Shown one piece after another: positions 1,595 to 56,811 of a stretch of 56,811 nt of DNA. The DNA is from a virus (taxonomy: Duplodnaviria; Heunggongvirae; Uroviricota; Caudoviricetes), in the IMG/VR virus record IMGVR_UViG_2698536317_000003. One strand, 5' to 3'. Below the pieces are notes generated by a model. That model was given only the letters and a program-made list of their open reading frames with translations, was not told the origin of the DNA and ran no database searches. The first letter of the stretch is position 1. Every line of letters starts with the position of its first letter. Both the position numbers and the translations under genes were made by a program.

Positions 1595-4264
1595 TTATTT
1601 TTCGCTTCCAGTCAACTTACTGACAAGCGCTTCAAGTTTTGCGATACGCTCATCCATTGCGGCAATGTTGGCGCGTAGGCTGGCGTTTTCTTCTTCCAGT
1701 TCGGTTACGCGGTTATCCGTTTCGCGTGCCACCTGGACAAGTAAACCAGTCACTGCGGCGTAGTCAACATTGAGGTAACGCGTTTCCTCGCGTAACTCGT
1801 TGCCGTCAGTGGTCGGGCCTTGTAACGCTTCACCGTAATGAGTAAACGATCCCACAGCTTCCGGCAGCGCCTCCATTACCTCCTGAGCGATAACGCCAGC
1901 GTAAGGCAGGCCGTTTTCCTTGAGGGTGTAGGTGTACCCGTTCATTTTACGGATGGCTTCAGTTGCATCACCTATAACCTGAATGTTGTCTTTTAAGTCC
2001 CTGTCTGATGATTGGGTAACTGAAGTGCATGTGATAGTGCCTTCAACCGCAAGCGAAGCAGAACCATCGGAAAGGTATTTAGCCACAAACAGCGTTTTTA
2101 ATGATGTTTGTGCGCCGTTTGTATCAACAGCTTTAACCTCATAATTCAGCGGGGATGATGAACCGCCCCATGTCATCACCTGTACGTTTGCCGAGGTTGT
2201 TGCGTAAGCAATATGCCTTATGAAACGTGTGTGCGTGCTATCAAAGATATAATGACCACTAAAATGATTGTCTGCTGTCCATACGTTTGCTGTATTAAGC
2301 GTTGCAAGTTGACACCAATCCTTGATCGTTCCATTTTCAATACTTCTTGCATAGAATGATGAGTTGCGCCCGGCGAACTGGGTAGCATAGTTACCGCTAA
2401 AGGTGACATGAAAACCACCCGCAACGCCAATACCCAAAGGACCATTGTCACTGCCTGCGATTGGCTTAAACTTCTCTACAGCATCCGTATGCTGATCGTT
2501 CCAGTTTTGCCCAGCATTTATGGCGTAACCTTTAGATGATCCTATCAGGCCATTTATGGTTAGTTTGGGCATCGTCATTGATATGTCTTCACCAACGGTA
2601 ATTCCGTTAAACAGACCTACGCGAGCACCACTACAAATATAATGGAGTCCTTCAGTTGTTGCAGAATAAAAACCACAACGCCCCATTCTGAAATCAAACA
2701 TAACCTGTAGGTTTTTATATGAACCTAAGGGGTCTGATACACCCCACGGTATGATCGTTTCTGTATCTTTACCACTATTATATACAACCTGGGCGGTTGG
2801 TACTTGTACTGTTACGCCCACAGGCAAGCGCATTTTAATAGGGAATGCCCTTGCTTCAACAAAAACAAAGAGCAGGTTATCTTTGTCTTTGCTGGAACTA
2901 CAGATAGAATGTAAAGCGATTTCTTTGTCGGTATAACGATTGTAAAAACCGTAACCTGCATCCTTTCTGTCACTCCACCCGCCAGTCCTTACATACCCGG
3001 AAAAGGTGTTACAGTTCATTGGGTAATTACCAGCGCCAGACACTGTAACAATATCGATCTGATAGCCAGTCAGGTAAGCGTTGTAATAATTGGCGTTTAT
3101 AATTATAGGGTAATACTTACCATCCTCAACGCCTTCCGGGGCTTCGATTGTTATTATCTCGCCACCGCCTATGGTTGGGATATTGATGTTTCTCCTTGTC
3201 TGTTCAGCGTTTTTAGGTTTGAAAGAGTCGGCTATAAATTCGCCGTTTATGTTGAGGCTTGCGTATTTGCTCACGCCGCCAGATCTTAAATGCATTGTTA
3301 ACTGGTCTGGCGAAGAAAGGTTTGTCTCAGGGTATAGTGCACCATAAATACGCTCCGATCCTGATGTACCAACCAAAACGCTGGAAAGAATACCTCCCGC
3401 AACCCATCCGGTAGTCACGTCAGTAGCTCTTTTTAGCGATACATTAGCAAACTGAGGACTATTTGAAGACCCAACGCCCAGGTTTGTTCTTGCTGTGTCT
3501 GCATCTCCTGCACCAGTGCCGCCAGCAGAAATTGAAAGCGGTAGATATTTACTAGCCTCTGAGTCGAAACAACCCCACGTTCCTGAATCATAGACGGTAA
3601 GGAATTTATTTGCGTTTTGAGAGCATACGCGTGTTTCTCCTGTTCTTTGAATAAGCCTGTTTACTTCATCCTTGCGTGCGTGACGTGTCCAGTTCGGTCC
3701 TGATGTTGCGACCCATGTGTAAGTATAAAGTGATCGCGTAGACCAACCGACAAAGACGCCTGCATACGAAGGCGATGTATCCTGCTGACAGATAAATCCA
3801 CTCAAAAATGATTCACCAGCCGCTACGGAAGGAAAACCCTTAGTCGTTTCCTTTATGCGCAAAAAGCCAACGTAAGAAGACGGATTGCCTGATATATCGA
3901 CGCAATCTCGCGGCTCTGGACCCAAGCCAATATTGCTGCCATCTATTGCGCTTGATATTTCATCTTCCTTTTCCTGATAAAAACGAAGCGTTTCTGCTAC
4001 ATCCTGGGCAAGTCCATCAACTGAGATCGAGTCAGAAAGCAGAATGCTAAATTTTGTCCCGGCGGCGATTGCGGGGTTAGCCGCTGGCGTTACTGACAGT
4101 TCAGTACCGCTCTTGATTTCTGTGATGGTAAAGATCTGAATGGGGTTGCTAATAGCAATAAGCGTGCAACCTACACGAATGAGAGAAAGCGGCGCGGAGA
4201 AGTTTGTGCCCGTGCCTTTAACAGTATTGCCGTTGATGGCAATTGTTCCAGTTGTGTAAATCAT
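1595..4264 (-). CDS. Phage tail fibre protein with C-terminal intramolecular-chaperone (peptidase S74-like) domain and terminal coiled coil
   Basis: 889-aa ORF; C-terminal region contains SSDRDLKDNI-type Ser/Lys motif and heptad-rich tail (ELEEENASLRANIAAMDERIAKLEALV) typical of auto-cleaving tail fibre/endosialidase chaperone domains. Confidence 0.65.
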   Translation of the reverse strand: MIYTTGTIAINGNTVKGTGTNFSAPLSLIRVGCTLIAISNPIQIFTITEIKSGTELSVTPAANPAIAAGTKFSILLSDSISVDGLAQDVAETLRFYQEKEDEISSAIDGSNIGLGPEPRDCVDISGNPSSYVGFLRIKETTKGFPSVAAGESFLSGFICQQDTSPSYAGVFVGWSTRSLYTYTWVATSGPNWTRHARKDEVNRLIQRTGETRVCSQNANKFLTVYDSGTWGCFDSEASKYLPLSISAGGTGAGDADTARTNLGVGSSNSPQFANVSLKRATDVTTGWVAGGILSSVLVGTSGSERIYGALYPETNLSSPDQLTMHLRSGGVSKYASLNINGEFIADSFKPKNAEQTRRNINIPTIGGGEIITIEAPEGVEDGKYYPIIINANYYNAYLTGYQIDIVTVSGAGNYPMNCNTFSGYVRTGGWSDRKDAGYGFYNRYTDKEIALHSICSSSKDKDNLLFVFVEARAFPIKMRLPVGVTVQVPTAQVVYNSGKDTETIIPWGVSDPLGSYKNLQVMFDFRMGRCGFYSATTEGLHYICSGARVGLFNGITVGEDISMTMPKLTINGLIGSSKGYAINAGQNWNDQHTDAVEKFKPIAGSDNGPLGIGVAGGFHVTFSGNYATQFAGRNSSFYARSIENGTIKDWCQLATLNTANVWTADNHFSGHYIFDSTHTRFIRHIAYATTSANVQVMTWGGSSSPLNYEVKAVDTNGAQTSLKTLFVAKYLSDGSASLAVEGTITCTSVTQSSDRDLKDNIQVIGDATEAIRKMNGYTYTLKENGLPYAGVIAQEVMEALPEAVGSFTHYGEALQGPTTDGNELREETRYLNVDYAAVTGLLVQVARETDNRVTELEEENASLRANIAAMDERIAKLEALVSKLTGSEK

Positions 4265-10984: not shown

Positions 10985-11658
10985 TTGTCAGATCTCCATA
11001 TTGAATGAGTTTGCCTAACATAAGCGGGCCGCATTTGCTCGCGGCGGCTTAACAGTCCGGCATTGTCATGATGCAAAACGGTGTTATCGCCCAGGTAAAT
11101 CATCGCGTGGCATGGGTCAGCGCCTTTGAACGGCTGCCTGATTATTACGTCACCTGGCTGGATGCTTTGCGCGTCAACCTGATAAAACCCGTTTAGCGGC
11201 AAGTTTTTTAAATACAGGTTTTCCCCACGCATCCACCACCCATCAAGGCGCTCGAAGTCAGGCAGATCCACGCCGCAAAGGTGATATGCGTCACGGAAAA
11301 GCGAGTAACAGTCTGTTTTCCCGTGTTCAAATTTACGGCCCAACAGGTGCGCCACAGGGCGGAATTTTCTAACCCTGCCACCGGAACACAAATACCACGG
11401 CAGGCCGGAAATAACCTGCTGTTGTCGATCCCGCGCTGACAGTACCAACGAATTGTCAGTATGGGAGTGAAAAACAGCAGTTATAACGCCTAATTCGTCA
11501 GCTTTGATATAATCGTCAGGCGATATTTTAAAGCTGTTGTGCGGCGTTTCAGACACGTTATCGCACGGGTAAAAATAATCGTTATCTATCACCAGCCCGC
11601 AAACTTCCTCGCGAGGGTGAGCGGCGGCATAACGAACCATTTTGTCTTCAAGTGCCAT
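10927..11658 (-). CDS. K: Tail assembly protein K (JAMM/NlpC-P60-like)
   Basis: 243-aa ORF with HSHTD and Cys/His motifs; position between L and I. Confidence 0.8.
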   Translation of the reverse strand: MALEDKMVRYAAAHPREEVCGLVIDNDYFYPCDNVSETPHNSFKISPDDYIKADELGVITAVFHSHTDNSLVLSARDRQQQVISGLPWYLCSGGRVRKFRPVAHLLGRKFEHGKTDCYSLFRDAYHLCGVDLPDFERLDGWWMRGENLYLKNLPLNGFYQVDAQSIQPGDVIIRQPFKGADPCHAMIYLGDNTVLHHDNAGLLSRREQMRPAYVRQTHSIWRSDKCSNLDLRAIFEDITARCV

Positions 11659-11660
11659 AA

Positions 11661-12365
11661 TCAGCCAACCTTACTTGATCCGGGGAAACATGAAATTGGT
11701 AACGAATTAGGGCGCGGGAAACGCAAACGGCAACCGCTGAGGCGGTGACTGCATTTATCTAACGTTGGATCGCTGGTCGGCGCGTCTTTATCAGTCGCTA
11801 CCGGACCGCCACTATATCCGCAACCGTCTCCGCGATATTGCCACTGGCAAACGTCAGCAAGGATGGTGCGCCCAGGGATAACAGCCTTATCTGCGTCTAC
11901 TGGCGTGGATAGTTCGTACTGTACTTGCTCCGCCGTTTCTTCACTCATTGCCTCGACAACGTAAACAGATACCGCCTCAATAGAAGGATCAGCATCTGGA
12001 TTGCCGTTAGGGAAGTTAACGGCGTCCAGGTATTTCACCTCCACCTGGTGGCGGGTTACTTTCATGCCGCGCAGGTCGTTAAAGTCGTTGTTCATTCCGG
12101 TAATAAGCCCGCCAATATTGGCTACTGCCATTTGAGGCCGCGCGTATACCCCCTCGTTTTTCATTTCGAAGCCGCTAACTTCGATCGGGTAGCTGTTGTA
12201 AGCGATACCCTTCCAGATAACATTCCCGTAATAGCCATTAGCGCCGGAATGGAAGCGGACAACATCGCCACCCAGGGGCGTGAGATCTAACTCAAACAAA
12301 TCAATGACCGCGCCGACTCCGGCATCAACGGAATCAATAATCATCTCTCTCGGAATATTGCGCAT
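11661..12365 (-). CDS. L: Minor tail protein L
   Basis: 234-aa ORF with C-terminal Cys cluster; position upstream of K. Confidence 0.8.
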   Translation of the reverse strand: MRNIPREMIIDSVDAGVGAVIDLFELDLTPLGGDVVRFHSGANGYYGNVIWKGIAYNSYPIEVSGFEMKNEGVYARPQMAVANIGGLITGMNNDFNDLRGMKVTRHQVEVKYLDAVNFPNGNPDADPSIEAVSVYVVEAMSEETAEQVQYELSTPVDADKAVIPGRTILADVCQWQYRGDGCGYSGGPVATDKDAPTSDPTLDKCSHRLSGCRLRFPRPNSLPISCFPGSSKVG

Positions 12366-12384
12366 TTTCTCACCTTGTCATTTT

Positions 12385-12400
12385 GTGATCTGTGTCACGC
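12385..12400 (+). promoter_or_regulatory. CRP-like palindrome TGTGA-N6-TCACG upstream of the L/M moron
   Basis: tgtgatctgtgtcacg read directly; TATACAAT -10-like hexamer about 35 bp downstream. Confidence 0.4.
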
Positions 12401-12494
12401 TAAATCATACCAAAATGGATTGATCGCGGTTTATACAATATGTATATTTTACTCAAACGGAAGCACAGTTAACAAAATGGCGCGGAGGTGTGAG

Positions 12495-12650
12495 ATGGCT
12501 GATAAGGTGTGGAGGTTGAAGGTATTCCTGTCAGGTGGCAGGGAAATGACTGTAGCTCTGTATAAAGACGAAGGCGAGGCACTGACTGACGCGCTATTAC
12601 TCGCTGAAGACGAACGCGTTTTGGGGTACAGAATCGAACCTGTCAAATGA
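12495..12650 (+). CDS. Small moron protein A (51 aa), paralogous to N-terminus of next ORF
   Basis: GGAGG RBS 6 nt before ATG 12495; motif VFLSGGREM...DEGEAL resembles VWLSGCKEC...SEEAAL in the next ORF. Confidence 0.45.
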   Translation: MADKVWRLKVFLSGGREMTVALYKDEGEALTDALLLAEDERVLGYRIEPVK

Positions 12651-12662
12651 GAGGTTAACGAA

Positions 12663-13010
12663 ATGCAAAAATATAGTCTTGATGTGTGGTTAAGTGGTTG
12701 CAAGGAGTGTTTCGGATTATTTGATAGCGAAGAGGCAGCTTTGGAAGAAGGAAGGATTCTTGAATGTAGTTTAGGCCATCCAGTGAAATATGCCGCTAAT
12801 CCGGTGCAGATAATTGATGAGGTGGAAAACATGAATCCGAAAGATATTAACTTTAACGTCAATGTTGAATTTGCTGATTCTATGGATCAGTCTTGCCCTG
12901 GTGAAATACACGCAAAAGGTTTCCCGGCAGACGATCCGCAAGCAAAACGCGAATACGAAAAAGCTGCGAAAGACTTCTGCATAGATAACCTGGGCGCATT
13001 CTATAAATAA
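12663..13010 (+). CDS. Moron protein B (115 aa), unknown function
   Basis: GAGG RBS; opposite strand to tail operon; followed by co-directional ORFs and a terminator. Confidence 0.55.
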   Translation: MQKYSLDVWLSGCKECFGLFDSEEAALEEGRILECSLGHPVKYAANPVQIIDEVENMNPKDINFNVNVEFADSMDQSCPGEIHAKGFPADDPQAKREYEKAAKDFCIDNLGAFYK

Positions 13011-13019
13011 GGCGGCAAC

Positions 13020-13268
13020 ATGGGGCGGCGCAATCACGGCGATTATGTGTACACGTTGAAACAAGCCGCCCGCCTCGTCGGTTATCATGAGCACGAATTT
13101 ATTGATTTGCTGATTGAGCGCGGGATACTGTACCAGGTCTGTTTAACGCTGTACCCAAAAGCGAAATACCTACAGGAAAAGTCATTCATCATCATGACGG
13201 ATGAAAACCAGGTCAATCATTCATTCGTTACTGATAAAGGTGTCAATTATCTGCGTGATAACTTATAG
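13020..13268 (+). CDS. Moron protein C (82 aa), probable HTH DNA-binding protein
   Basis: Segment YTLKQAARLVGYHEHEFIDLLIERGIL is HTH-like. Confidence 0.45.
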   Translation: MGRRNHGDYVYTLKQAARLVGYHEHEFIDLLIERGILYQVCLTLYPKAKYLQEKSFIIMTDENQVNHSFVTDKGVNYLRDNL

Positions 13269-13278
13269 GTGGCAGATT

Positions 13279-13416
13279 ATGAAAATAGAAGTTTTGGCGC
13301 TAATAATAATGGGCTTGATCGTATTTGGTGTTCACGCTGCTGGTTGGGACTGGGCGGCAATAGCAAACAACATGGCGCACGCTCACCCAATGAGTTTGAT
13401 GCACATTAACTACTGA
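13279..13416 (+). CDS. Moron micro-protein D (45 aa), predicted membrane peptide
   Basis: MKIEVLALIIMGLIVFGVHAAGW hydrophobic helix; ATG 13279. Confidence 0.35.
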   Translation: MKIEVLALIIMGLIVFGVHAAGWDWAAIANNMAHAHPMSLMHINY

Positions 13417-13421
13417 TAAGA

Positions 13422-13450
13422 AAACCCCGCGCGAAGCGGGGTTGTTATTA
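13422..13450 (+). terminator. Rho-independent terminator ending the L/M moron
   Basis: CCCCGC-GCGAA-GCGGGG hairpin followed by TTGTTATTA. Confidence 0.6.
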
Positions 13451-13645
13451 TACGCCATCAACCAAAAATAAAACCTCCTTGCCTTCCCTGGATCTGCATC
13501 CCACATAACCATCACCAACATCATGAAGATACCATGTATCGCCATTGTCAGCCTTTACAGTAAGGTCGTTGATCTCATAGTCTTCAAATAATGTAAATGC
13601 GTCAGTTTTGTCAACTACACAAGTCCCGTACATATTAACCCCCAC
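13448..13645 (-). CDS. Hypothetical small protein (65 aa) downstream of M
   Basis: ORF co-oriented with tail operon; no recognisable motif. Confidence 0.3.
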   Translation of the reverse strand: MGVNMYGTCVVDKTDAFTLFEDYEINDLTVKADNGDTWYLHDVGDGYVGCRSREGKEVLFLVDGV

Positions 13646-13998
13646 TAGCTGACAACTTGCTCAAATGTTGCGTTTAGCGTGTATACAGGCCCGTCTTTTG
13701 TCATACTCCAGCTACGACAAACAAAAAGCCTTTGCACTCCATCCATCGACGGCGTCCAGTAGAAAGCCTCGACAGCGCCGCGCGCCCTCAAAAATGCTTC
13801 AGCCTGGATCGCCACGTTTCCACCATCACCGCATCCCGCGCTACTGCCTTTAAAAACCAGGGTATAGCTATCAAGCAACGTGTTAATCCCTTTCGCCTGG
13901 CGCTGTTCATAACCATCACCAAGTTTAACGACCGACACATTTGGTTCCCTGGTCACGCTGTAGCTTCTTTGCGGCGTCCATTTGAAAACTTCTGGCAT
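13645..13998 (-). CDS. M: Minor tail protein M
   Basis: 117-aa ORF between tape measure and L, size and position as lambda gpM. Confidence 0.75.
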   Translation of the reverse strand: MPEVFKWTPQRSYSVTREPNVSVVKLGDGYEQRQAKGINTLLDSYTLVFKGSSAGCGDGGNVAIQAEAFLRARGAVEAFYWTPSMDGVQRLFVCRSWSMTKDGPVYTLNATFEQVVS

Positions 13999-14023
13999 GA
14001 TTCCCCCTATAAGTTACATATTG

Positions 14024-14055
14024 TATACATCTTTACGCGTTGCTACGCGAAAAAT
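14024..14055. promoter_or_regulatory. Conserved 31-bp element ATACATnTTTACGCGTTGCTACGCGAAAAAT, copy 1 (upstream of M / moron E)
   Basis: Near-identical copy at 26650-26680 upstream of portal; contains inverted repeat CGCGT-AGCA-ACGCG on the minus strand. Confidence 0.4.
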
Positions 14056-14167
14056 GATAAATTCGTCACAAGAATTATACCCAGTTTACGAAATGGCTTC
14101 ACACAGGACGCAACAAGATGTATATAGAAAGCAAGAAGAGAAAGCAGTACCAACAAAGGGGGCCAAT

Positions 14168-14323
14168 ATGGAACGCTATGTAGTGGTAATGCTGAACAAA
14201 GCATTCGAACAGGTGGAAGTTGCGATTGTGAAGGGTTTTGATGATGCATTCAAATACGGTCAATTCATGATGAATGCAAAAGAAGATGAATACCGTGATT
14301 TCTTCCTGAAAGTGGTCAACTGA
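14168..14323 (+). CDS. Moron protein E (51 aa), unknown
   Basis: AAGGGGG RBS before ATG 14168; opposite strand to tail genes. Confidence 0.4.
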   Translation: MERYVVVMLNKAFEQVEVAIVKGFDDAFKYGQFMMNAKEDEYRDFFLKVVN

Positions 14324-14343
14324 TTGATTGCGTGGGGTGAGTT

Positions 14344-14598
14344 ATGAAATTGGTGGCGATTGGCAAAAACCTGAAAGCACAGAAAAACGCACAGGACCGG
14401 ATCATCAAAAAGGGCAAGGCTTTATTAAATGCTTTCCTGAGAAAAGAGGCCACCCCCAAAAAATTACGCGATGGCTACGGTTATAAATTTGATATTAACC
14501 CCGACTGGCGGTTATTCAGCGAAGATTTAAAGGCGTGGTTAATTATCGACCATCTGGAATATAACAGACACTGTGGGGTTAAAGGGGCGCATAAGTAA
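14344..14598 (+). CDS. Moron protein F (84 aa), basic, unknown
   Basis: ORF co-directional with E between M and tape-measure genes. Confidence 0.45.
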   Translation: MKLVAIGKNLKAQKNAQDRIIKKGKALLNAFLRKEATPKKLRDGYGYKFDINPDWRLFSEDLKAWLIIDHLEYNRHCGVKGAHK

Positions 14599-14732
14599 GG
14601 CGGGCATGAAGGGCGATAAATTCACCCGGCGGGGAACTGGAATGTTTGACAGGTAATTTTGGATAGGGTGTATCGCGCGGAATGGTTGTTTATAAATACG
14701 AAAATAGCCCCGGCATTGTACCGGGGTTTGGT

Positions 14733-17700
14733 TTATTTGCGGCGAGGTTGCAACATTCCTCCCGGTCTGGATGATTCGCGGTGTATCAGGCCCATACAGA
14801 TCTTTTCCATATCCTGCTGTAGTTTTTTGGCGTCCTCATCACTCCATCCATTTTGTGGGTAAACACTAATCGGTGCGTTTATACTAACGTTACCGCCGCC
14901 CGCACCACCAATGTCGCGATTTGATATTATCCTGCCGTTGTCACCCGGAATCATGTACTGCTCGCCGTTTCGAGATTGGAAGATCTCTGGCTTGCCGTGC
15001 TCGCCAACCCTATAAAGATTGCCGCCATTAACCGCGCCGCCGTTATAGCGAGCACCCGCCAGGCCAAGCGCTTTTGCCCCAGCTAATCCGGTAGCCATCG
15101 CCGCTGACCCCGCCGTCGCTGCGCCGCCCATTGTTGCCACGCTTGCCAGGTATGCCGGGGTGGACCATGCAGAACTTAACGCCACCGCCTCGCCCATTGC
15201 CTTTGCTGTTGCGGCGGCACTGGCAGCCTCCCCTATTAATTGCTGCTTGACCCATTCAGCGCCCATCTGAACAAGCGTACCGATCACGGATGACAGAATT
15301 GTATTGCCAATGTTAGCAAGCGCCTGTTGCCAACTCTGAGTGCCGTTAACCAGTCCGACAAGCGCGTTTGTTGCGGAACCACTCATTGCATCAACAGTAT
15401 CACCTAACAATTGGTTGCTCATTGACTGCGCTTTATATCGTTCCCATTCAAGGGAAAGCATTTCCTGTGCGTGCGCTTTTTCTTGCTCCCTCATATATTG
15501 CTCGGTAGCGCCTAAATCGGTAAGCATTTGTTTGCGAACAGCCCATTCGTTTTGCGCCTGCTGGATTGGGTCTACCTGCCCGCGCACTTGTAGCTCTTTG
15601 TTTACCAGATTATCCCAGCTAGCCTGACGTTTGCGTTGTTCCTCGGTTCCAATTAATTCTTTCCATGCCTTATTGTATTGTTCCGCGCTTATTTTCCCGC
15701 TTTTAAGTGCGGCGTTTAGCGCCTCCTGATCCTCTTTTAATTTCCGTTGTGCTGCAGCTTCTACGTTGTATTTGTCTGCAACATTCTGGCCCCGCTTCTC
15801 AAGCTCTTTGCGCAGGCGTTCAGCCTCTTTTAGACGTTTTTTCTCCTCGCTTTCGCCAGTTTTTTTCCCATGACTGGCCTTTCTTTCAGCTTCGGCGCGT
15901 TTCTGCTCGGTGTCGTATGCTTTGGTCATTGTAGCCATGTATTTTTCATACGCTTCCCCGGTCAGGTTTGCTTTCTCAGCCTCACGCTTAAACCCATCAA
16001 TCGCCTTTTCCCTGCTGGCTGTTTTGGAGTCGAGTTTTGCCAGTTCCAGGCGGCGGTTTGCCAGATCCATTAGCTCTTGCTGATCTGCGTTAAGTGCGGC
16101 TGAAGCGTGTTGCGTTGCTGCTGCTGCGCGTTCTGCTTCTGTGGTGATTCTTCCGTATGCGTCTGCCACCAACCCTAATGAAGTGGCAAGGGTCTTCATT
16201 AGCGGATCTGTATCCTGCATAAGCAAAATATATTTGCGCTGCATTTGATTAAGGCGGTCGAGAATATCCTCACGCTGCGCCTCTTCCCTGGTCAGGCGGG
16301 CTGTGATTTCCTGATTAGCTTTCGATAGGTTGGCGTAAGCGCGTGACCCCTCCTCTGCTTTCTCCAGTGCCTGTTTATTCAGCTCTAGCGCCTGCGTGTC
16401 CTGGTCAATCTGTTTGTTGAGACTGGCAACGTCTTCCTCTAACTGACCCATTGATATTTGTAGTTTATCTGCGCCAGCCAGTTTAGCCGCCTTGCTCATT
16501 CGCTCCAGTGATTCGGTACTAACATCCACTGAATCAGCAAGGTTGCGGTTTGCCTCTGCCGTTTGATCTACGTGATCTACATATGCTGTCAACCCGTAAA
16601 CAGCAAGCATTAACGCGCCAGGGATACCACCAATCGCGCCCAGAGTAGCGCTAAATGCTGTTTTTAGTAGTCCCGCATTAGTCGCCGCCGCAGTGTGGGC
16701 CGCAGCAAGGCGCTGCTCTGCCGCAGTAAGGGCGTTTGATGCCGCCGTGTTCTGTGCTTTGGCTACAGCCAATTCTTTCAGCGTCTGAACTTCGAATTTT
16801 GTTCCGGCGTTTGCCGCAGCATAAGCCTGCGCCTCTCTCAGCCTTGCCGCCGCCGCCGCTGCTGATTGCCGTGCTGATACCACCTGAGCGTTAGCTAGCG
16901 CCAATTCACTCTGAGCGGCCTGCCGTGCCGCTGCCGTTTGTGCCCTGGTTGCCTGAGCGTTAGTTAATGCCTCTGCTGTTGCAGCTACGAATTTATTTAC
17001 CACTCTGCCACCCATCACAGTGGCAAGGCCAATAAATGCAGTAGCTATTTCGTTAAGGTTTTCTGACAGGGTTACAACTGCCGAATTAAAAGCACCAATC
17101 CCGCCCATAATTGACGAATTGCTGCCGAAAAATTTAGCTGCGTTGTTGCCTGCAACAGTGAAAGCCTCCTGCATAGTTGGGGTGAGTTTAGAAAACTCAG
17201 CATCAACCTCCGCTTTCATTTCCTTAAGGGCTTTAATGATAGCTTCACGGGTGATCTTCCCTTCTGCTGCCATCTTGCGCATTTCTGCCGACGATACGCC
17301 CAATGATTTAGCCAAACCCTCTGACAGCCTGGTAGCGTTTTCTGTAACGGAGTTAAATTCATCGCCATTCAAAACACCTTTGGCGAGGGATTGACCCAAC
17401 TGACGGATCCCGCCTTCTGCTTCAGCGGCAGAAGCGCCAGAAATGCGGAATGTTTTGTTAATGGTTTCAACCATATCACCAAGTGCTTGCGTCGATAAAC
17501 CAGCGTCGCGCGTCGAGCGCTCTAATTTACCGTAAAGATCTGCCGTAGCATCAAGATCGCTTCGTGAATTTTGCGCGATCTGAAATACACGCTGATTAAC
17601 GTCTGCCAGTGATTCACCAGCACGAACGCTATTGATTAGCCTGTTATTCACCTCCTGCCAGGCGTTTGCATACTCAATGATTTTTTTTGCTGCCATTGCA

Positions 17701-17888
17701 GCACCCAGGGCACTGGCAATCGAGGATAGCTTTGACAGTGACTTACTTGCCTGAGTGGCGGCACTATCCACGCGCTCCAAATCCTTTTCCATTTTGCCAG
17801 TTGCGCGATCTACCTCGCGCTGAACAGTCAGAAGCTGACCCGTTTTTGCATCAACCTCGTAATAAATTGTGCCTAAATTTGTTGACAT
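14733..17888 (-). CDS. H: Tail tape measure protein
   Basis: 1051-aa Ala/Gln-rich coiled-coil ORF upstream of M-L-K-I-J. Confidence 0.9.
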   Translation of the reverse strand: MSTNLGTIYYEVDAKTGQLLTVQREVDRATGKMEKDLERVDSAATQASKSLSKLSSIASALGAAMAAKKIIEYANAWQEVNNRLINSVRAGESLADVNQRVFQIAQNSRSDLDATADLYGKLERSTRDAGLSTQALGDMVETINKTFRISGASAAEAEGGIRQLGQSLAKGVLNGDEFNSVTENATRLSEGLAKSLGVSSAEMRKMAAEGKITREAIIKALKEMKAEVDAEFSKLTPTMQEAFTVAGNNAAKFFGSNSSIMGGIGAFNSAVVTLSENLNEIATAFIGLATVMGGRVVNKFVAATAEALTNAQATRAQTAAARQAAQSELALANAQVVSARQSAAAAAARLREAQAYAAANAGTKFEVQTLKELAVAKAQNTAASNALTAAEQRLAAAHTAAATNAGLLKTAFSATLGAIGGIPGALMLAVYGLTAYVDHVDQTAEANRNLADSVDVSTESLERMSKAAKLAGADKLQISMGQLEEDVASLNKQIDQDTQALELNKQALEKAEEGSRAYANLSKANQEITARLTREEAQREDILDRLNQMQRKYILLMQDTDPLMKTLATSLGLVADAYGRITTEAERAAAATQHASAALNADQQELMDLANRRLELAKLDSKTASREKAIDGFKREAEKANLTGEAYEKYMATMTKAYDTEQKRAEAERKASHGKKTGESEEKKRLKEAERLRKELEKRGQNVADKYNVEAAAQRKLKEDQEALNAALKSGKISAEQYNKAWKELIGTEEQRKRQASWDNLVNKELQVRGQVDPIQQAQNEWAVRKQMLTDLGATEQYMREQEKAHAQEMLSLEWERYKAQSMSNQLLGDTVDAMSGSATNALVGLVNGTQSWQQALANIGNTILSSVIGTLVQMGAEWVKQQLIGEAASAAATAKAMGEAVALSSAWSTPAYLASVATMGGAATAGSAAMATGLAGAKALGLAGARYNGGAVNGGNLYRVGEHGKPEIFQSRNGEQYMIPGDNGRIISNRDIGGAGGGNVSINAPISVYPQNGWSDEDAKKLQQDMEKICMGLIHRESSRPGGMLQPRRK

Positions 17889-18147: not shown

Positions 18148-18507
18148 ATGAAAAGTCTGGCAAAAATCTTAATCGTGGCGGTACTTGCAGGAGTTGCGCT
18201 TAATGCTAATGCTGAGCACTCTCCGTCCGCAAAATACATACTTCGTGAATGTGCGCATAATGCTCAGTTGTACGATATAAAGCATGGTGACGGTAATGGT
18301 GATCTGGAAATGCCATTTAACGTTGGCTGTATTCATTACGCAATGAAGCCAGTATTAGAAAAAACCGCTGAATGGAAAGATCTTAATAGCAAGTACAATG
18401 AATTAAAAGAGGCGGCAAAAAACAATAAAGCGTCACTAAATGCGTTTAAGGATGGCGAGTCTTATGGTGTAAACGTGGCCCACAGAGTTGATGCGTATTT
18501 CAACTAA
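18148..18507 (+). CDS. Secreted (signal-peptide) moron protein, 119 aa
   Basis: MKSLAKILIVAVLAGVALNANA signal peptide; opposite strand to tail operon; own terminator. Confidence 0.55.
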   Translation: MKSLAKILIVAVLAGVALNANAEHSPSAKYILRECAHNAQLYDIKHGDGNGDLEMPFNVGCIHYAMKPVLEKTAEWKDLNSKYNELKEAAKNNKASLNAFKDGESYGVNVAHRVDAYFN

Positions 18508-34127: not shown

Positions 34128-34174
34128 TTTGTATACATTGTGATACGAGTCACATTTTGCGCAATTAACTTTTA

Positions 34175-39383: not shown

Positions 39384-39399
39384 TGTGATCCACATCACG
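39384..39399. promoter_or_regulatory. CRP-like palindrome TGTGA-N6-TCACG nested in a 29-bp palindrome
   Basis: ccattatgtgatccacatcacgcaatgg read directly (39378-39406). Confidence 0.4.
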
Positions 39400-41720: not shown

Positions 41721-41972
41721 CTAGAAATAGTCCTGTTCCGTTCCCCAACGGTTGTTCAAATATCCCACCAACCAGATAAAACGCTCAATACTGATTAGTG
41801 GGGCGACCTTGCGATAATGCTTTTCTAATATCAGCCGCGTAGCTTTATCGCTGTAGCCGTTTCTTTCTACCTCCGCTTTGCAGGCAGAAAGCGCTGCGCG
41901 GGCGGCAGCTTTTACGGCATTAAATTGCAGTTCTGACATATTGAACAAAGCCATAGGATCACCATTCATCAC
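41721..41972 (-). CDS. Hypothetical protein (83 aa)
   Basis: ORF in early-left small-gene block. Confidence 0.35.
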   Translation of the reverse strand: MMNGDPMALFNMSELQFNAVKAAARAALSACKAEVERNGYSDKATRLILEKHYRKVAPLISIERFIWLVGYLNNRWGTEQDYF

Positions 41973-42679: not shown

Positions 42680-42898
42680 TTAAGCCTCAATAACACCGTA
42701 ATCAAACGTGCCTAAATACCGTTCGATGCTTACAACCTCAATACCATCAATGCACCGTTTCCACACAGACACCCGGCTTTCATTTTCCCGGAAGTGCATA
42801 TTAGAAAGCACTTCATCGGCTGGATAGCCTTTCCCGGCGACGTAGGCATCGTGACCTACTCCACCCTCAACACAATAAAGCATTAATTCGCGGGCCAT
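42680..42898 (-). CDS. Hypothetical protein (72 aa)
   Basis: Preceded by CRP-like site at 42980-42995. Confidence 0.35.
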   Translation of the reverse strand: MARELMLYCVEGGVGHDAYVAGKGYPADEVLSNMHFRENESRVSVWKRCIDGIEVVSIERYLGTFDYGVIEA

Positions 42899-42998
42899 CT
42901 TGTTTTTCCTCCGCGCCGTAAACCTTTTGATTTCAGTTCACAAAACGGATTTACGATCACAACACAAAATGTATTTCTATGTGATCGCCATCACTATG

Positions 42999-47193: not shown

Positions 47194-47841
47194 TTATGGC
47201 AGGTTTACGATCTTCGCATCAACTACCACGCCTATGATTTTTGATTCTGGATTCATAGGGATTGGCGGATACAGCGGATTGAGCGAACGTAAAAGCCTTT
47301 GACCTCCATCAATAATCAACTGTTTAAACGTCGGTATCTGCCCTTCCTCAAGCTGGGCTATAACCAGTTTGCCGTCAATAGCTGGCGCGTGCGGGTCCAC
47401 GAGTATCATCGTCCCCGCCGGGATGCTCAACCCCTGCGGCGCGTTCATTGATTCACCTTTGGCAACCAGCCAGTAACTATCATCTGAACAAATAACGCTA
47501 GTCGTAACGTGTGGTAATGCTGATCGCCTTGTGTCATCCATATTGTTTACTGTATCCTTCCAGTCAATAACCGGGTAACTACCTAAATCACGCGGCGGTG
47601 CGGCCTGAAGTGTATTAGAAACAGAATCATCAATGACCATACCATCATGTGTAACAGTGAACTGCCGACGACCAAGCGCCCGCATAATCCGCGCAATATC
47701 TTCAAGATTTGGCTCGCGGCGACCGTTCAGCCAGTGTGACAGGCCGCCTTTAGTTATCCCCATGAGATCTGCGAGTGAATCCTGACTCATGCCCTGCGCC
47801 CGCATGAGCTGCTTTGCTAAGTCATACCATTTTGTTTTCAT
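47194..47841 (-). CDS. CI-like repressor (HTH_XRE N-terminus, LexA/S24 peptidase-like C-terminus)
   Basis: N-terminal HTH (SQDSLADLMGITKGGLSHWLNG) and C-terminal GESM...K autocleavage-type domain. Confidence 0.85.
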   Translation of the reverse strand: MKTKWYDLAKQLMRAQGMSQDSLADLMGITKGGLSHWLNGRREPNLEDIARIMRALGRRQFTVTHDGMVIDDSVSNTLQAAPPRDLGSYPVIDWKDTVNNMDDTRRSALPHVTTSVICSDDSYWLVAKGESMNAPQGLSIPAGTMILVDPHAPAIDGKLVIAQLEEGQIPTFKQLIIDGGQRLLRSLNPLYPPIPMNPESKIIGVVVDAKIVNLP

Positions 47842-55436: not shown

Positions 55437-55654
55437 TGGATAAGATCGGGACAATACTTATTAACCGTGAGCAAGTGCAAAAAATGTTAGGCGGGCTTAG
55501 CAAGTCCGCCTTTTTTAAGCTCGTTAAAAAATGGAAAGAAGCGGGAACTCCTTTCCCTGAACCTGTAAAGGGGATGCCAGCATTAAAGCGCGGGGGATCT
55601 CTTTACCGTTATCAGGACGTTATTTCATTTTGTAAATCGATGGGCTTCATGTAG
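55436..55654 (+). CDS. Excisionase-like / small DNA-binding protein
   Basis: 72-aa ORF adjacent to and converging on the integrase gene. Confidence 0.45.
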   Translation: MDKIGTILINREQVQKMLGGLSKSAFFKLVKKWKEAGTPFPEPVKGMPALKRGGSLYRYQDVISFCKSMGFM

Positions 55655-56811
55655 TAATCAGCCAGTTTATTCATCGCCTCGATTTGTTCCCTCACGTAAT
55701 CATATTGATCATAGATAGCCATCATCCCCGCCAGTTTATGACCCAAAACCTTTTCGGCTACGTGCGGCGCAACGCCAAGCGCTGAAAGGTTTGTCCTTAC
55801 AGTGCGGCGTAGATCGTGACACGACCACGGCTCGCCGCCCATCCTTAGCATCAAATCCCTTGCGGCTGTTTTCGGCACGCTCCTGTCTACCGCTTCATCC
55901 CTTCCAGAAAGCACGGGAACGAAGATAAAATTAAAGCCGTGCAAATCCATAGCCTCACGCAATAAATCAACGCTAACGGCAGATAAACCGCGTTTAAACT
56001 CATTTCTGTTCTTACTCAATGCACCCGGCACGGTCCACACACAATTATCAAGATCAAAATGCTCGCGTTTTGCGTTTGTTAGCTCGCTTGTTCTGCATCC
56101 GGTGAATATAATCAGCTTCATCAATATCTGATTTAGCCGCGCCATTTTTGAGCTATCTATAATGCTGATCAGATGGTGAATCTCTTGTATTGATAAAACG
56201 CGCTTCCTTTGCGCCGGGTTTTTGCCAACGTCTTTCACGCGTAGCAATGATATGTCGTCACGCTCCACGCGGCGGCGGCGCATGGCATATTTTATAACCG
56301 CCTTCATCCTGTTTAAGACTATCCCGGCCTGAACGGGCGCGCCACCATTAGCTACCTTTCTAAAAATTCCCTCCCACATTATGGCGTCCATATCATCAAC
56401 AATATAGCTACCGCATGGTTTGACAATATGCTTGCTTAACATCGCTTCGACTTGCTTATGGTTGACCATGTTTCTTGCCTGCGGTGATTCCATATATTCC
56501 CTGACAATATCTTCAACGGTCGCCCGTGTCGTAACGCGGGAAAGGTGCATTCTTTTTACGATCGATGGATCTCGCCCTGAGTTTAATATTTCCTTATGTT
56601 CCGCCACCGCCGCGCGGGCTTCTTTGAGCGTTATTTCTCCGTAAGTGCCAATCTTCATCCGTCGCGGCTTGCCGTTGAATCGGTAGCGATACTGGAAAGA
56701 TATAACGCCGTGCGGGCTTATCCTGGCAGACAATCCGCCCGCGTCCGGGACTTCTTCCGGGCCGTCATATGGCTTGCCGTGGATGTTTCGTAATTTGGTA
56801 TCTGTAAGCAT
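55612..56811 (-). CDS. Tyrosine integrase, P4-type
   Basis: 399-aa ORF with arm-binding N-terminus (MLTDTKLRN...ISFQYRYRFNGK) and C-terminal catalytic domain; 5-prime end at window edge. Confidence 0.9.
   Translation of the reverse strand: MLTDTKLRNIHGKPYDGPEEVPDAGGLSARISPHGVISFQYRYRFNGKPRRMKIGTYGEITLKEARAAVAEHKEILNSGRDPSIVKRMHLSRVTTRATVEDIVREYMESPQARNMVNHKQVEAMLSKHIVKPCGSYIVDDMDAIMWEGIFRKVANGGAPVQAGIVLNRMKAVIKYAMRRRRVERDDISLLRVKDVGKNPAQRKRVLSIQEIHHLISIIDSSKMARLNQILMKLIIFTGCRTSELTNAKREHFDLDNCVWTVPGALSKNRNEFKRGLSAVSVDLLREAMDLHGFNFIFVPVLSGRDEAVDRSVPKTAARDLMLRMGGEPWSCHDLRRTVRTNLSALGVAPHVAEKVLGHKLAGMMAIYDQYDYVREQIEAMNKLADYYMKPIDLQNEITS

Follow-up and report, generated by a model that had tools for sequence, protein, structure and literature searches.

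A four-gene opposite-strand cassette with a CRP-like site between the tail genes L and M of an mEp021-group Escherichia coli prophage

Anatomy of the cassette and its regulatory sequences

The stretch of DNA analysed here (56,811 nucleotides, referred to below as the window) represents an entire E. coli prophage belonging to the mEp021/mEpimmI coliphage group. Its tail genes L and M are read from the minus strand, and the region between them harbors four small plus-strand genes, designated p51, p115, p82 and p45 by the lengths of their products in amino acids, as had been described in the initial annotation. The region is composed of the following features:

11661-12365, minus strand: tail gene L (PF05100, E 4e-72)
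12384-12399, no strand assigned: CRP-like palindrome TGTGATCTGTGTCACG, one mismatch to TGTGA-N6-TCACA
12420-12448, plus strand: sigma-70-type promoter TTGATC-17 nt-TATATT, predicted from the sequence
12495-12650, plus strand: p51, open reading frame of 51 aa
12663-13010, plus strand: p115, open reading frame of 115 aa
13020-13268, plus strand: p82, open reading frame of 82 aa
13279-13416, plus strand: p45, open reading frame of 45 aa
13423-13443, no single strand: hairpin of a bidirectional intrinsic terminator with an 8-bp G+C stem, detected on both strands
13448-13645, minus strand: orf65 (61-65 aa, phrog_3249), located between M and the cassette in the direction of the tail operon
13645-13998, minus strand: tail gene M (PF05939, E 1e-29)

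The location between L and M given initially is correct; the minus-strand orf65 between M and the cassette had not been mentioned. Each of p51, p115, p82 and p45 is preceded by a Shine-Dalgarno-like sequence at a distance of 5-8 nt. The GC content is 0.41-0.48 in the cassette against 0.52-0.54 in L, and the GC skew is inverted (becomes positive) over the cassette. The dN/dS ratios calculated for about 40 distinct alleles (0.23 for p51, 0.24 for p115, 0.12 for p82 and 0.20 for p45) demonstrate that these are real genes and, as judged from the allele sequences, purifying selection acts on all four of them. Two further opposite-strand islands are present in the same tail cluster, one with a ParE-like toxin domain and the other with a signal-peptide protein.

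The palindrome TGTGATCTGTGTCACG matches nine of the ten CRP core positions, including GATC of the ideal CRP site; six CRP-like sites are observed in the window versus 1.46 expected. Of 40 distinct relatives, 39 retain the half-sites TGTGA and TCAC, whose minor-allele frequencies are 0.005 and 0.000, respectively. Among the 40 distinct promoter sequences, the 6-nt spacer of the palindrome occurs in 13 variants (minor-allele frequency 0.225), the -10 hexamer does not vary, the -35 hexamer hardly varies and the spacing of 17 nt is maintained. The best-conserved intergenic columns of this phylogenetic footprint are formed by the CRP half-sites together with the -10 hexamer, and the most variable ones by the palindrome spacer. 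The CRP-like palindrome that had been noticed ahead of the genes is indeed present, with a single mismatch to the consensus and with conserved half-sites.

The distance from the palindrome centre to the -35 hexamer is 28.5 bp in the window and 27.5 bp in about half of the relatives. Taking the predicted start 7 nt after the -10 hexamer, the centre is located at about -63.5 (window) or -62.5, the canonical position being -61.5. The arrangement resembles class I CRP-dependent promoters such as lac P1 in its TGTGA-N6-TCAC core about 62 bp before the predicted start and in its weak -35 hexamer, but the centre of the candidate site is shifted 1-2 bp farther upstream than -61.5. Repressor operators were also sought at the cassette promoter; the trial motif was not enriched and the operator is poorly defined, and no claim is made on it. 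Short repeats near the promoter (copies of CAAAATGG as well as GGCGCGGAGG, which is shared with position 42908) are either not conserved or too short to be interpreted. The region 11500-15000 contains no Rfam matches at E <= 1.

The hairpin downstream of p45 has calculated energies of -17.6 and -15.7 kcal/mol on the two strands and is retained in about 50 of 54 loci; in some of them the loop is inverted, with the stem preserved. The terminator is annotated on both strands in the mEp021 record, and the convergent M-orf65 transcript shares it with the cassette. The initial description of a strong intrinsic terminator is correct as to the hairpin itself, but the terminator should be graded good and not strong because its U-tract is interrupted.

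Distribution among phages and prophages

The cassette corresponds to genes 71-74 of mEp021 and is also found in mEp013, mEp010, mEp515, mEp554, mEp044 and MagusPhagus, as well as in 35 of 5426 complete E. coli genomes. When members of the group are sampled via gene M alone, which is unbiased as to the cassette, it occupies the same place in 29 of the 30 informative members. The remaining member (L072) has lost precisely the cassette together with orf65: a gap of 131 bp replaces about 1.3 kb, and the CRP-like site and the promoter are left in place. It follows from this joint loss that orf65 belongs to the same inserted, dispensable block. None of the 48 informative relatives whose M is about 70% identical has the cassette. 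The distance between M and L is 44-45 bp in 12 of these, and the other 36 carry different M-L inserts of 178-1301 bp, some of them with opposite-strand ORFs. In the comparison with moron-free relatives that had been suggested as a check, M and L are adjacent in these 12 more distant relatives and the exact block is lost in L072.

The cassette is extra DNA between otherwise adjacent genes and has its own predicted promoter, its own terminator and a deviating base composition. Its designation as a moron therefore holds as far as an autonomous inserted unit is meant; it is not sporadic, being nearly universal in the mEpimmI group. Such retention under purifying selection means that the operon presumably adds to the fitness of the phage or the lysogen. 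The mEpimmI phages have been reported to be as frequent in human gut E. coli as lambdoid phages. Although the repressor of the group carries an S24 domain, most of its phages cannot be induced by UV (PMC11893012).

Proteins encoded by the cassette

The product of p82 matches PF03374 with E 2.3e-6 and 28.3 bits (the Pfam cut-off is 25.3) over profile positions 23-105 of 108, and the ANT/KilAC name is given to it also by PGAP and in the mEp021 record. On this profile evidence, p82 is a stand-alone ANT/KilAC-domain protein of HTH-like type, which confirms the HTH noticed previously in the third gene. The statement that none of the proteins is recognisable does not hold for p82. Most group members encode p82 with 89-100% identity, the figure falling to 73% at L055, the most divergent locus; the protein is neutral (pI 6.9). 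A KilAC-like protein is among the manually defined core proteins of the mEpimmI group (PMC11893012). For AriS of Listeria phage phi10403S, the KilAC C-terminal domain alone is sufficient for SOS inhibition (PMC9043618), and the C-terminal domain of Phi11 Gp07 inhibits the growth of E. coli and makes it filament (PMC5944126). AriS and other ANT/KilAC (PF03374) proteins belong to the same Pfam family as p82, but p82 is a bare 82-aa domain devoid of an AntA/Bro-N/pRha N-terminal domain, comes from a phage of a Gram-negative host and is similar to AriS at the profile level only. No direct BLAST match links the two proteins beyond the shared Pfam family, and tblastn of phage records finds KilAC relatives in Cronobacter and Hafnia phages only, with no Listeria record. 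Since p82 is neutral and distant from AriS, the transfer of the SOS-inhibition function to it is weak. The possibility that p82 is Ipe (the haemolysis-inducing ORF-4 of mEp021, whose starts give 83, 82, 77 and 72 aa) was rejected because its start pattern does not match; the Ipe homologue of the window, the only ORF with 83/82/77/72-aa starts, is located far from the cassette at 41721-41972 on the minus strand.

The protein p51 (phrog_29559, function unknown in PHROG) is acidic (pI 4.9) and soluble, with no hydrophobic segment, and its AlphaFold2 model is a beta-beta-alpha-beta fold (pLDDT 89). The name "transporter" assigned to it by PGAP is probably wrong, as it has neither a hydrophobic segment nor family support. 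The protein p115, also acidic (pI 4.4), consists of a variable beta-beta-alpha-beta domain (residues 1-50) and a highly conserved acidic C-terminal module of 59 aa (residues 57-115), in which Cys78 and Cys106 are invariant and His83 is nearly so; the dN/dS ratios of the N-terminal and C-terminal parts are 0.23 and 0.11, respectively. The motif that had been noticed at the N-termini of the first two gene products is supported by profile-profile comparison (hhalign), which gives P = 1.1e-4 over 45 columns for p51 and the N-terminal part of p115 (P = 0.003 in a first attempt), control pairs in the same comparison giving P of 0.06-0.44. The AlphaFold2 topology of both domains is the same. Judged from the profiles and the models, p51 and the N-terminal domain of p115 are paralogues. 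The 51-aa protein of the second island, orf65, the ParE-like protein and p82 were considered as further relatives and rejected (hhalign P 0.06-0.44). A natural fusion of p51 and p115 at the same locus forms one protein of 172 aa. Beside conserved neighbours, the alleles of p51 share 41-100% identity and those of the p115 N-domain 58-99%.

A full HMMER search for remote homologues of p115 (1.84 billion representatives) returned nothing beyond its own family except some long spurious proteins and a handful of C-modules that stand alone. One stand-alone C-module is encoded by an unrelated viral contig of 121 kb, where it has its own TTGACA promoter and is followed by a p45-like peptide; this contig has zero nucleotide matches among GenBank phages. 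The module is found in a 58-kb phage as well, and some of the contigs carrying it resemble arrays of individually promoted small genes. Fold searches with the cassette proteins give generic matches only, the fold of p51 being common to very many small uncharacterised phage proteins. Foldseek with the p115 model ranks T7 Gp2, an inhibitor of host RNA polymerase, third (TM 0.64 relative to the target). T7 Gp2 is like p51 and p115 a small acidic beta-beta-alpha-beta protein; no significant sequence or structure similarity places them in its family.

The tiny membrane peptide announced as the fourth gene product is borne out by the N-terminal hydrophobic segment MKIEVLALIIMGLIVFGVHA of p45 (Kyte-Doolittle maximum 2.35), which looks like a signal peptide or a membrane anchor by its sequence. 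This gene is facultative: it is found in 37 of 54 loci as alleles of 45 and 38 aa, its start codon is ATA instead of ATG in 6 copies, and it is absent or start-less in about 40% of loci.

No defence family of PADLOC-DB 2.0 is matched by any cassette protein at E <= 0.1. Toxin families of Pfam, NCBIfam and PADLOC are likewise not found among the four proteins, the ParE_like domain being confined to the neighbouring island. Homology to ordinary tail accessory proteins, which would have told against the initial view, was not detected either: the cassette proteins have no tail-structural annotation and no structural family match in Pfam, PHROG or NCBIfam.

Possible function and relation to known systems

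Beyond the anatomy, conservation and family assignments described above, we infer the expression state of the cassette, its CRP dependence and its function. The cassette is probably an autonomous accessory operon (a multi-gene "moron") that is read against the late operon and acts on the host or on prophage induction, not on tail assembly. Its sequence suggests that it is most likely a catabolite-responsive operon expressed in the prophage, and that its products are most likely not parts of the virion. According to this reading, the cassette would have entered a lambda-like tail gene cluster at the junction of M and L. Host sigma-70 RNA polymerase would initiate at about 12455 from the promoter with the weak -35 hexamer, aided by cAMP-CRP that would occupy the palindrome upstream, placed as in class I promoters of the lac type. 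The transcript would span p51, p115, p82 and, where present, p45 and would end at the hairpin 13423-13443. As no phage late function is required, lysogens should express the operon, above all when carbon is limiting. In the lytic cycle, it should meet interference from antiterminated late transcription arriving from the opposite direction. The KilAC protein p82 may be the conserved effector or regulator and, by analogy with AriS, might dampen the induction that depends on RecA/SOS; the poor inducibility of the mEpimmI group by UV would agree with this. The polymorphic pair of p51 and p115 might provide target binding or specificity, with p51 and the p115 N-domain as small binding-type domains and p45 as an optional membrane or secreted peptide.

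Several observations count against this reading. The near-universal presence of the cassette is unusual for a lysogenic-conversion moron. The palindrome centre is at about -62.5/-63.5 instead of the canonical -61.5, and the palindrome could serve some other dimeric regulator as operator. The arrays with the p115 C-module would suit a role in lytic host takeover no less well. The weak tie of p82 to AriS and the generic nature of the fold matches count against the reading too. A more specific form of the accessory-operon reading, which we regard as speculative and rather improbable, is that a bare KilAC domain, a hypervariable beta-beta-alpha-beta pair and the 59-aa acidic module together make up a catabolite-controlled module, undescribed before, that reprogrammes a host pathway, which could be RecA/SOS-dependent induction or the entry of competing phages. 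If true, the module would couple prophage stability or immunity to the cell's carbon status, and it could explain the poor UV-inducibility of mEpimmI phages despite their S24-domain repressor.

It is possible, albeit doubtful, that the cassette serves prophage defence or superinfection exclusion, with the N-domains of p51 and p115 recognising components of incoming phages, the p115 C-module or p82 as the effector and p45 at the inner membrane, for which HK97 gp15 is a precedent. An independently promoted unit inside a tail operon, the strong variation of the p51 and p115 N-domains beside conserved neighbours, the small membrane peptide predicted for p45 and the ParE-like toxin domain on the neighbouring island all speak for this role. 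However, none of the four proteins matches a PADLOC model or contains an enzymatic or toxin domain, and p45 is missing or start-less in many loci. The dN/dS ratio of 0.23 in the variable domain combined with saturated synonymous divergence points to old allelic diversity and not to detectable positive selection.

Alternatively, a dimeric regulator encoded by the phage, such as p82, could use the palindrome as its operator, which would make the operon autoregulated instead of CRP-dependent. Conserved half-sites around a free spacer would suit any protein that binds as a dimer, the domain of p82 is of HTH type, and similar TGTGATC-N4-NTCAC sites are located at 39384 and 42980 in two early intergenic regions. 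This is nevertheless unlikely: the CRP core is matched exactly in 9 of 10 positions, including GATC of the ideal site, the palindrome is in an activator position and does not overlap the -35/-10 hexamers as expected for a repressor, and no DNA specificity is known for KilAC domains.

Lytic host takeover or anti-defence, in which small acidic proteins would inhibit host factors early and the orientation of the cassette would give early expression independent of the late operon, seems still harder to accept as the main role. It would agree with the small size and low pI of p51 and p115, with the abundance of the p51 fold among small phage proteins, with the weak resemblance to the RNA-polymerase inhibitor T7 Gp2 and with the C-module found alone behind a TTGACA promoter in the 121-kb contig and again in the 58-kb phage. 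That the products are ordinary tail accessory or assembly proteins lying on the other strand by chance is extremely improbable, as nothing but the location between L and M favours it, while they have no structural annotation in Pfam, PHROG or NCBIfam, a sigma-70-type promoter and terminator of their own and a KilAC/HTH domain, and the cassette is missing in L072 and in all more distant relatives with homologous M and L.

As a probable accessory operon, the cassette is a compact, well-delimited test case for putative CRP-controlled prophage genes. It supplies a bare KilAC domain for study and two orphan modules: the beta-beta-alpha-beta fold seen in very many small phage proteins, and the conserved acidic module of 59 aa that unrelated phages also possess. 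Control of induction or exclusion by the operon would mean a nutritional input to the behaviour of gut prophages; otherwise the operon is another uncharacterised moron.

A regulatory cluster of the antirepressor family with its own promoters and terminator is also found among the late/tail genes of P22 (immI, mnt-arc-ant). The cassette has no Arc/Mnt ribbon-helix-helix homologues, its p51 and p115 folding as beta-beta-alpha-beta instead; no antisense RNA family of Rfam is present at the cassette, and p82 lacks the N-terminal part of Ant. The likeness between the two consists in an antirepressor-family gene embedded among tail genes.

The moron concept reportedly goes back to Juhala, Hendrix and colleagues, and lom and bor of lambda as well as gp15 of HK97 are morons of lambdoid tail/late operons. 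In contrast to these, the cassette comprises four genes (up to six when expanded) that form an operon on the opposite strand; almost all members of its phage group carry it, its CRP-type site is conserved, and its orphan proteins do not resemble Lom, Bor or gp15. In common with lambdoid morons, it is extra DNA of lower GC content between genes that are adjacent in relatives, and with its own promoter and terminator it could, judging by the sequence, be transcribed independently of the late operon.

Genes of the cassette and the prophage carrying it

The initial annotation described four plus-strand open reading frames of 51, 115, 82 and 45 amino acids, and these are confirmed, each with a Shine-Dalgarno-like sequence at its 5' side. 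Their products (p51, p115, p82 and p45) are encoded within a lambda-like tail cluster on the minus strand (tape measure, M, L, K, I, J), together with a minus-strand frame beside M, orf65, which that annotation lacked.

Features of the cassette and the prophage
11661-12365, minus strand, tail gene L
12420-12448, plus strand, promoter-like TTGATC-17-TATATT upstream of p51
12495-12650, plus strand, p51, 51 aa
12663-13010, plus strand, p115, 115 aa
13020-13268, plus strand, p82, 82 aa
13279-13416, plus strand, p45, 45 aa
13448-13645, minus strand, orf65, 61-65 aa, phrog_3249, between M and the hairpin
13645-13998, minus strand, tail gene M
14733-17888, minus strand, tape measure
47194-47841, repressor with CI-like HTH and S24 domain

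GC content is 0.41-0.48 in the cassette versus 0.52-0.54 in L; over exactly the cassette stretch the skew reverses its sign. The pairwise dN/dS (Nei-Gojobori) of the ORFs in 54 related loci comes to 0.23 (p51), 0.24 (p115), 0.12 (p82, the most conserved product) and 0.20 (p45), with 0.05-0.08 for L and M. As judged from sequence, all four are real genes. The proteins match PHROG families of unknown function, except for p45, which weakly matches a "membrane protein" PHROG; no NCBIfam, PADLOC or Rfam model was matched by the cassette.

The whole prophage fills the window, with host abgT (1-1446) at one end and a tyrosine integrase (55612-56811) at the other, in keeping with the report that mEp021 integrates in the ydaM region. 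It belongs to the mEp021-type (mEpimmI) phages, described as Nus-dependent, non-lambdoid coliphages from human faeces (PMC11893012). The cassette region shares 86-94% identity with Escherichia phages mEp021, mEp013, mEp010, mEp515, mEp554, mEp044 and MagusPhagus and is also matched in prophages of 35 of the 5426 complete E. coli genomes. The cassette sequences are already in public records (mEp021_74 to _71 and equivalents), where all genes are labelled "hypothetical" in GenBank except one "putative antirepressor"; the operon was previously uncharacterised.

An ORF at 41721-41972 (minus strand) has in-frame starts giving 83, 82, 77 and 72 aa. Since ORF-4 (Ipe) of mEp021, which induces HlyE-dependent haemolysis, was published with the same set of starts, the prophage probably carries an ipe homologue there, and identification of the cassette itself with Ipe was rejected.

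Insertion at the M/L junction

Relatives were sampled via gene M, so that the sample is independent of cassette presence. Among the 30 informative loci whose M is at least 84% identical, 29 have the p51-p115-p82 genes in the same position. In the mEpimmI-type locus L072 (IMGVR_UViG_3300045988_076424, 3849-3979) merely 131 bp separate M and L: the stretch from the p51 5' UTR through the end of orf65 is precisely lost, and the CRP-like site and promoter are retained, the latter now directed into the end of gene M. This locus is a natural cassette-free variant usable for comparison. The cassette is absent from all 48 informative loci with ~70% M and L identity; the M-L gap is 44-45 bp in 12 of them, and the remaining 36 have other DNA inserted there (178-1301 bp), in some cases with opposite-strand ORFs. 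Because of the 29/30 carriage, the L072 deletion and the empty or differently filled distant relatives, the M/L junction is, by locus comparison, an insertion hot spot and the cassette an insert fixed in the mEpimmI lineage, in agreement with the moron proposed initially.

The cassette is expandable within the group. Facultative plus-strand genes of 77-81, 67 and 58 aa, and once an HNH endonuclease, use the p115/p82, p82/p45 and post-p45 slots; the homing-endonuclease gene (locus L034, 4357-4842) lies between p115 and p82. Another HNH homing-endonuclease gene, mEp021_78 (locus L001, 75-641), lies between tail genes I and J, and the two are further evidence that tail-cluster junctions accept insertions. 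The cassette is a multi-gene operon of the moron type: autonomous, selected, group-wide and opposite in strand.

A second opposite-strand island (14168-14598, plus strand) separates M from the tape measure, is conserved in almost every relative and ends in a bidirectional hairpin (14706-14728); a weak CRP-like site, TGATAAATTCGTCACA, is located upstream (14055-14070). It encodes an acidic 51-aa protein (14168-14323), unrelated in sequence to p51, and after it a basic 84-aa protein in which a ParE_like toxin domain is recognised (PF24732, E 3.7e-11); the two resemble a toxin-antitoxin pair. A third opposite-strand gene (18148-18507, plus strand) is situated between a DUF6246 tail gene and the tape measure; its product of 119 aa has no Pfam match but bears a clear signal peptide, MKSLAKILIVAVLAGVALNANA. 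Opposite-strand islands are therefore found at three successive junctions of the tail operon.

Cassette proteins and their possible role

The p51 protein is acidic (pI 4.9) and soluble, with no hydrophobic segment, and its AlphaFold2 model is a confident beta-beta-alpha-beta fold (pLDDT 89). The PGAP name "transporter" given to its homologues (locus L003, 2694-2849, and other RefSeq E. coli prophages), which lack any family match, is for these reasons not credible and looks like a propagated misannotation. The N-terminal motif noticed in the first two genes reflects true paralogy: residues 1-50 of p115 are modelled in p51-like topology (pLDDT about 90), and hhalign places the whole of p51 onto p115 residues 4-49 with P = 1.1e-4 when divergent alleles are included (first attempt, P = 0.003; five control pairs, P 0.06-0.44 over 6-15 columns). 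A natural fusion of 172 aa (P0053), encoded at the same locus, joins a p51-like domain and a p115-like protein in one chain, and p51 and p115 are therefore functionally linked.

The N-domain of p115 varies strongly (58-99% identity), and its synonymous sites are saturated. The C-module (residues 57-115) is almost invariant, with Met57 nearly invariant and Cys78, His83 and Cys106 invariant or nearly so. The C-module is also encoded on its own, as a protein of 56-60 aa, by a 121-kb viral contig (locus L054, 3962-4292, IMGVR_UViG_3300045988_157310) that is unrelated and has no nucleotide match among GenBank phages; this 60-aa copy shares 83% identity with residues 69-115 of p115. Directly after it comes a 45-aa peptide resembling p45 (58% identity), and the two are flanked by a TTGACA-17-TAAGAT promoter and a terminator of their own, which points to a functional link of C-module and p45. 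A more distant copy is present in a 58-kb phage. Beyond its own family and a few stand-alone C-modules, p115 had no relatives among 1.84 billion representative proteins in a full HMMER search. Of the 54 loci, 37 contain the p45 gene, with alleles of 45 and 38 aa; the ATG has been lost from 6 copies. The hydrophobic segment at the N-terminus of p45 ends in VHA-A and may be either a membrane anchor or a signal peptide that is cleaved off.

The p82 protein matches the ANT/KilAC domain (PF03374) above the Pfam threshold over most of the profile, and is 89-100% identical in most group members (73% in L055, the most divergent locus). An "antirepressor KilAC-like" protein is among the manually defined core proteins of mEpimmI (PMC11893012). 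Function was inferred via p82, as it alone among the products has a characterised family. The ANT/KilAC domain of Listeria AriS by itself suppresses the SOS response, probably via RecA (PMC9043618), and the KilA-type C-terminal domain of Phi11 Gp07 by itself causes growth inhibition and filamentation in E. coli (PMC5944126). Taken with the report that mEpimmI phages are mostly not UV-inducible (PMC11893012), despite the S24 domain of the repressor, these activities favour a role directed at the host or at induction. By this analogy, which we put forward with low confidence, p82 might act as a conserved regulator or effector, with polymorphic p51 and p115 as subunits for binding or specificity.

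It is also possible that the cassette is a defence or exclusion module, as its polymorphism, membrane peptide and ParE-like neighbour would suggest, but PADLOC offers no match. Genes for lytic host takeover would be in line with the stand-alone C-module in other phages. Tail accessory proteins are improbable given the L072 deletion and the distant relatives without the cassette.

Predicted control of transcription

The CRP-like palindrome proposed upstream of the cassette is present at 12384-12399 (TGTGATCTGTGTCACG). Its TGTGA-N6-TCAC pattern is kept in 39 of 40 distinct L-p51 intergenic sequences, the 6-nt spacer taking 13 forms. Minor-allele frequency per column in this set is 0.005 and 0.000 in the half-sites, 0.225 in the palindrome spacer, 0.000 in the -10 hexamer, 0.037 in the -35 hexamer and 0.08-0.10 in the remaining region. 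This is the footprint expected of a dimeric DNA-binding protein and a sigma-70 promoter; alternatively, the palindrome may not be a CRP site but serve a phage regulator as its operator. The proposed terminator is likewise found, as a hairpin (13423-13443) with an 8-bp G+C stem scoring on both strands; it is retained in 50 of 54 loci, with the loop inverted in some and the stem preserved. The predicted control elements comprise a conserved sigma-70-type promoter, a conserved CRP-type palindrome in activator position and a bidirectional terminator.

Most likely, host RNA polymerase helped by cAMP-CRP would transcribe the cassette in the lysogen. The bidirectional hairpin stands within the tail operon, so late transcripts can extend into L, K, I and J only by readthrough of this hairpin. 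This would imply antiterminated late transcription colliding, and probably interfering, with that of the cassette during lytic growth.

The window holds 6 CRP-like palindromes with at most one mismatch (1.46 expected), others including 39384-39399, 42980-42995 and 34139-34154. Two of these, at 39384 and 42980, have the form TGTGATC-N4-NTCAC and fall between genes of the early region. A 10-mer, GGCGCGGAGG, is located just 5' of the p51 start codon (12479-12488, plus strand) and just 5' of a 72-aa early gene at 42680-42898 (42908-42917, minus strand), 2 matches versus 0.06 expected; this could reflect a translation-initiation context common to both genes, or be accidental.

Tail-operon morons are well known in general, but the clean CRP footprint, bare KilAC domain and paralogous hypervariable pair make this one a well-defined experimental target. 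From the palindrome centre to the -35 hexamer there are 28.5 bp in the window and 27.5 bp in about half of the relatives, which places the centre at about -63.5 or -62.5, assuming a start 7 nt past the -10 hexamer. The class I CRP position of lac is -61.5, and the predicted position in the cassette is near to it, though not identical.
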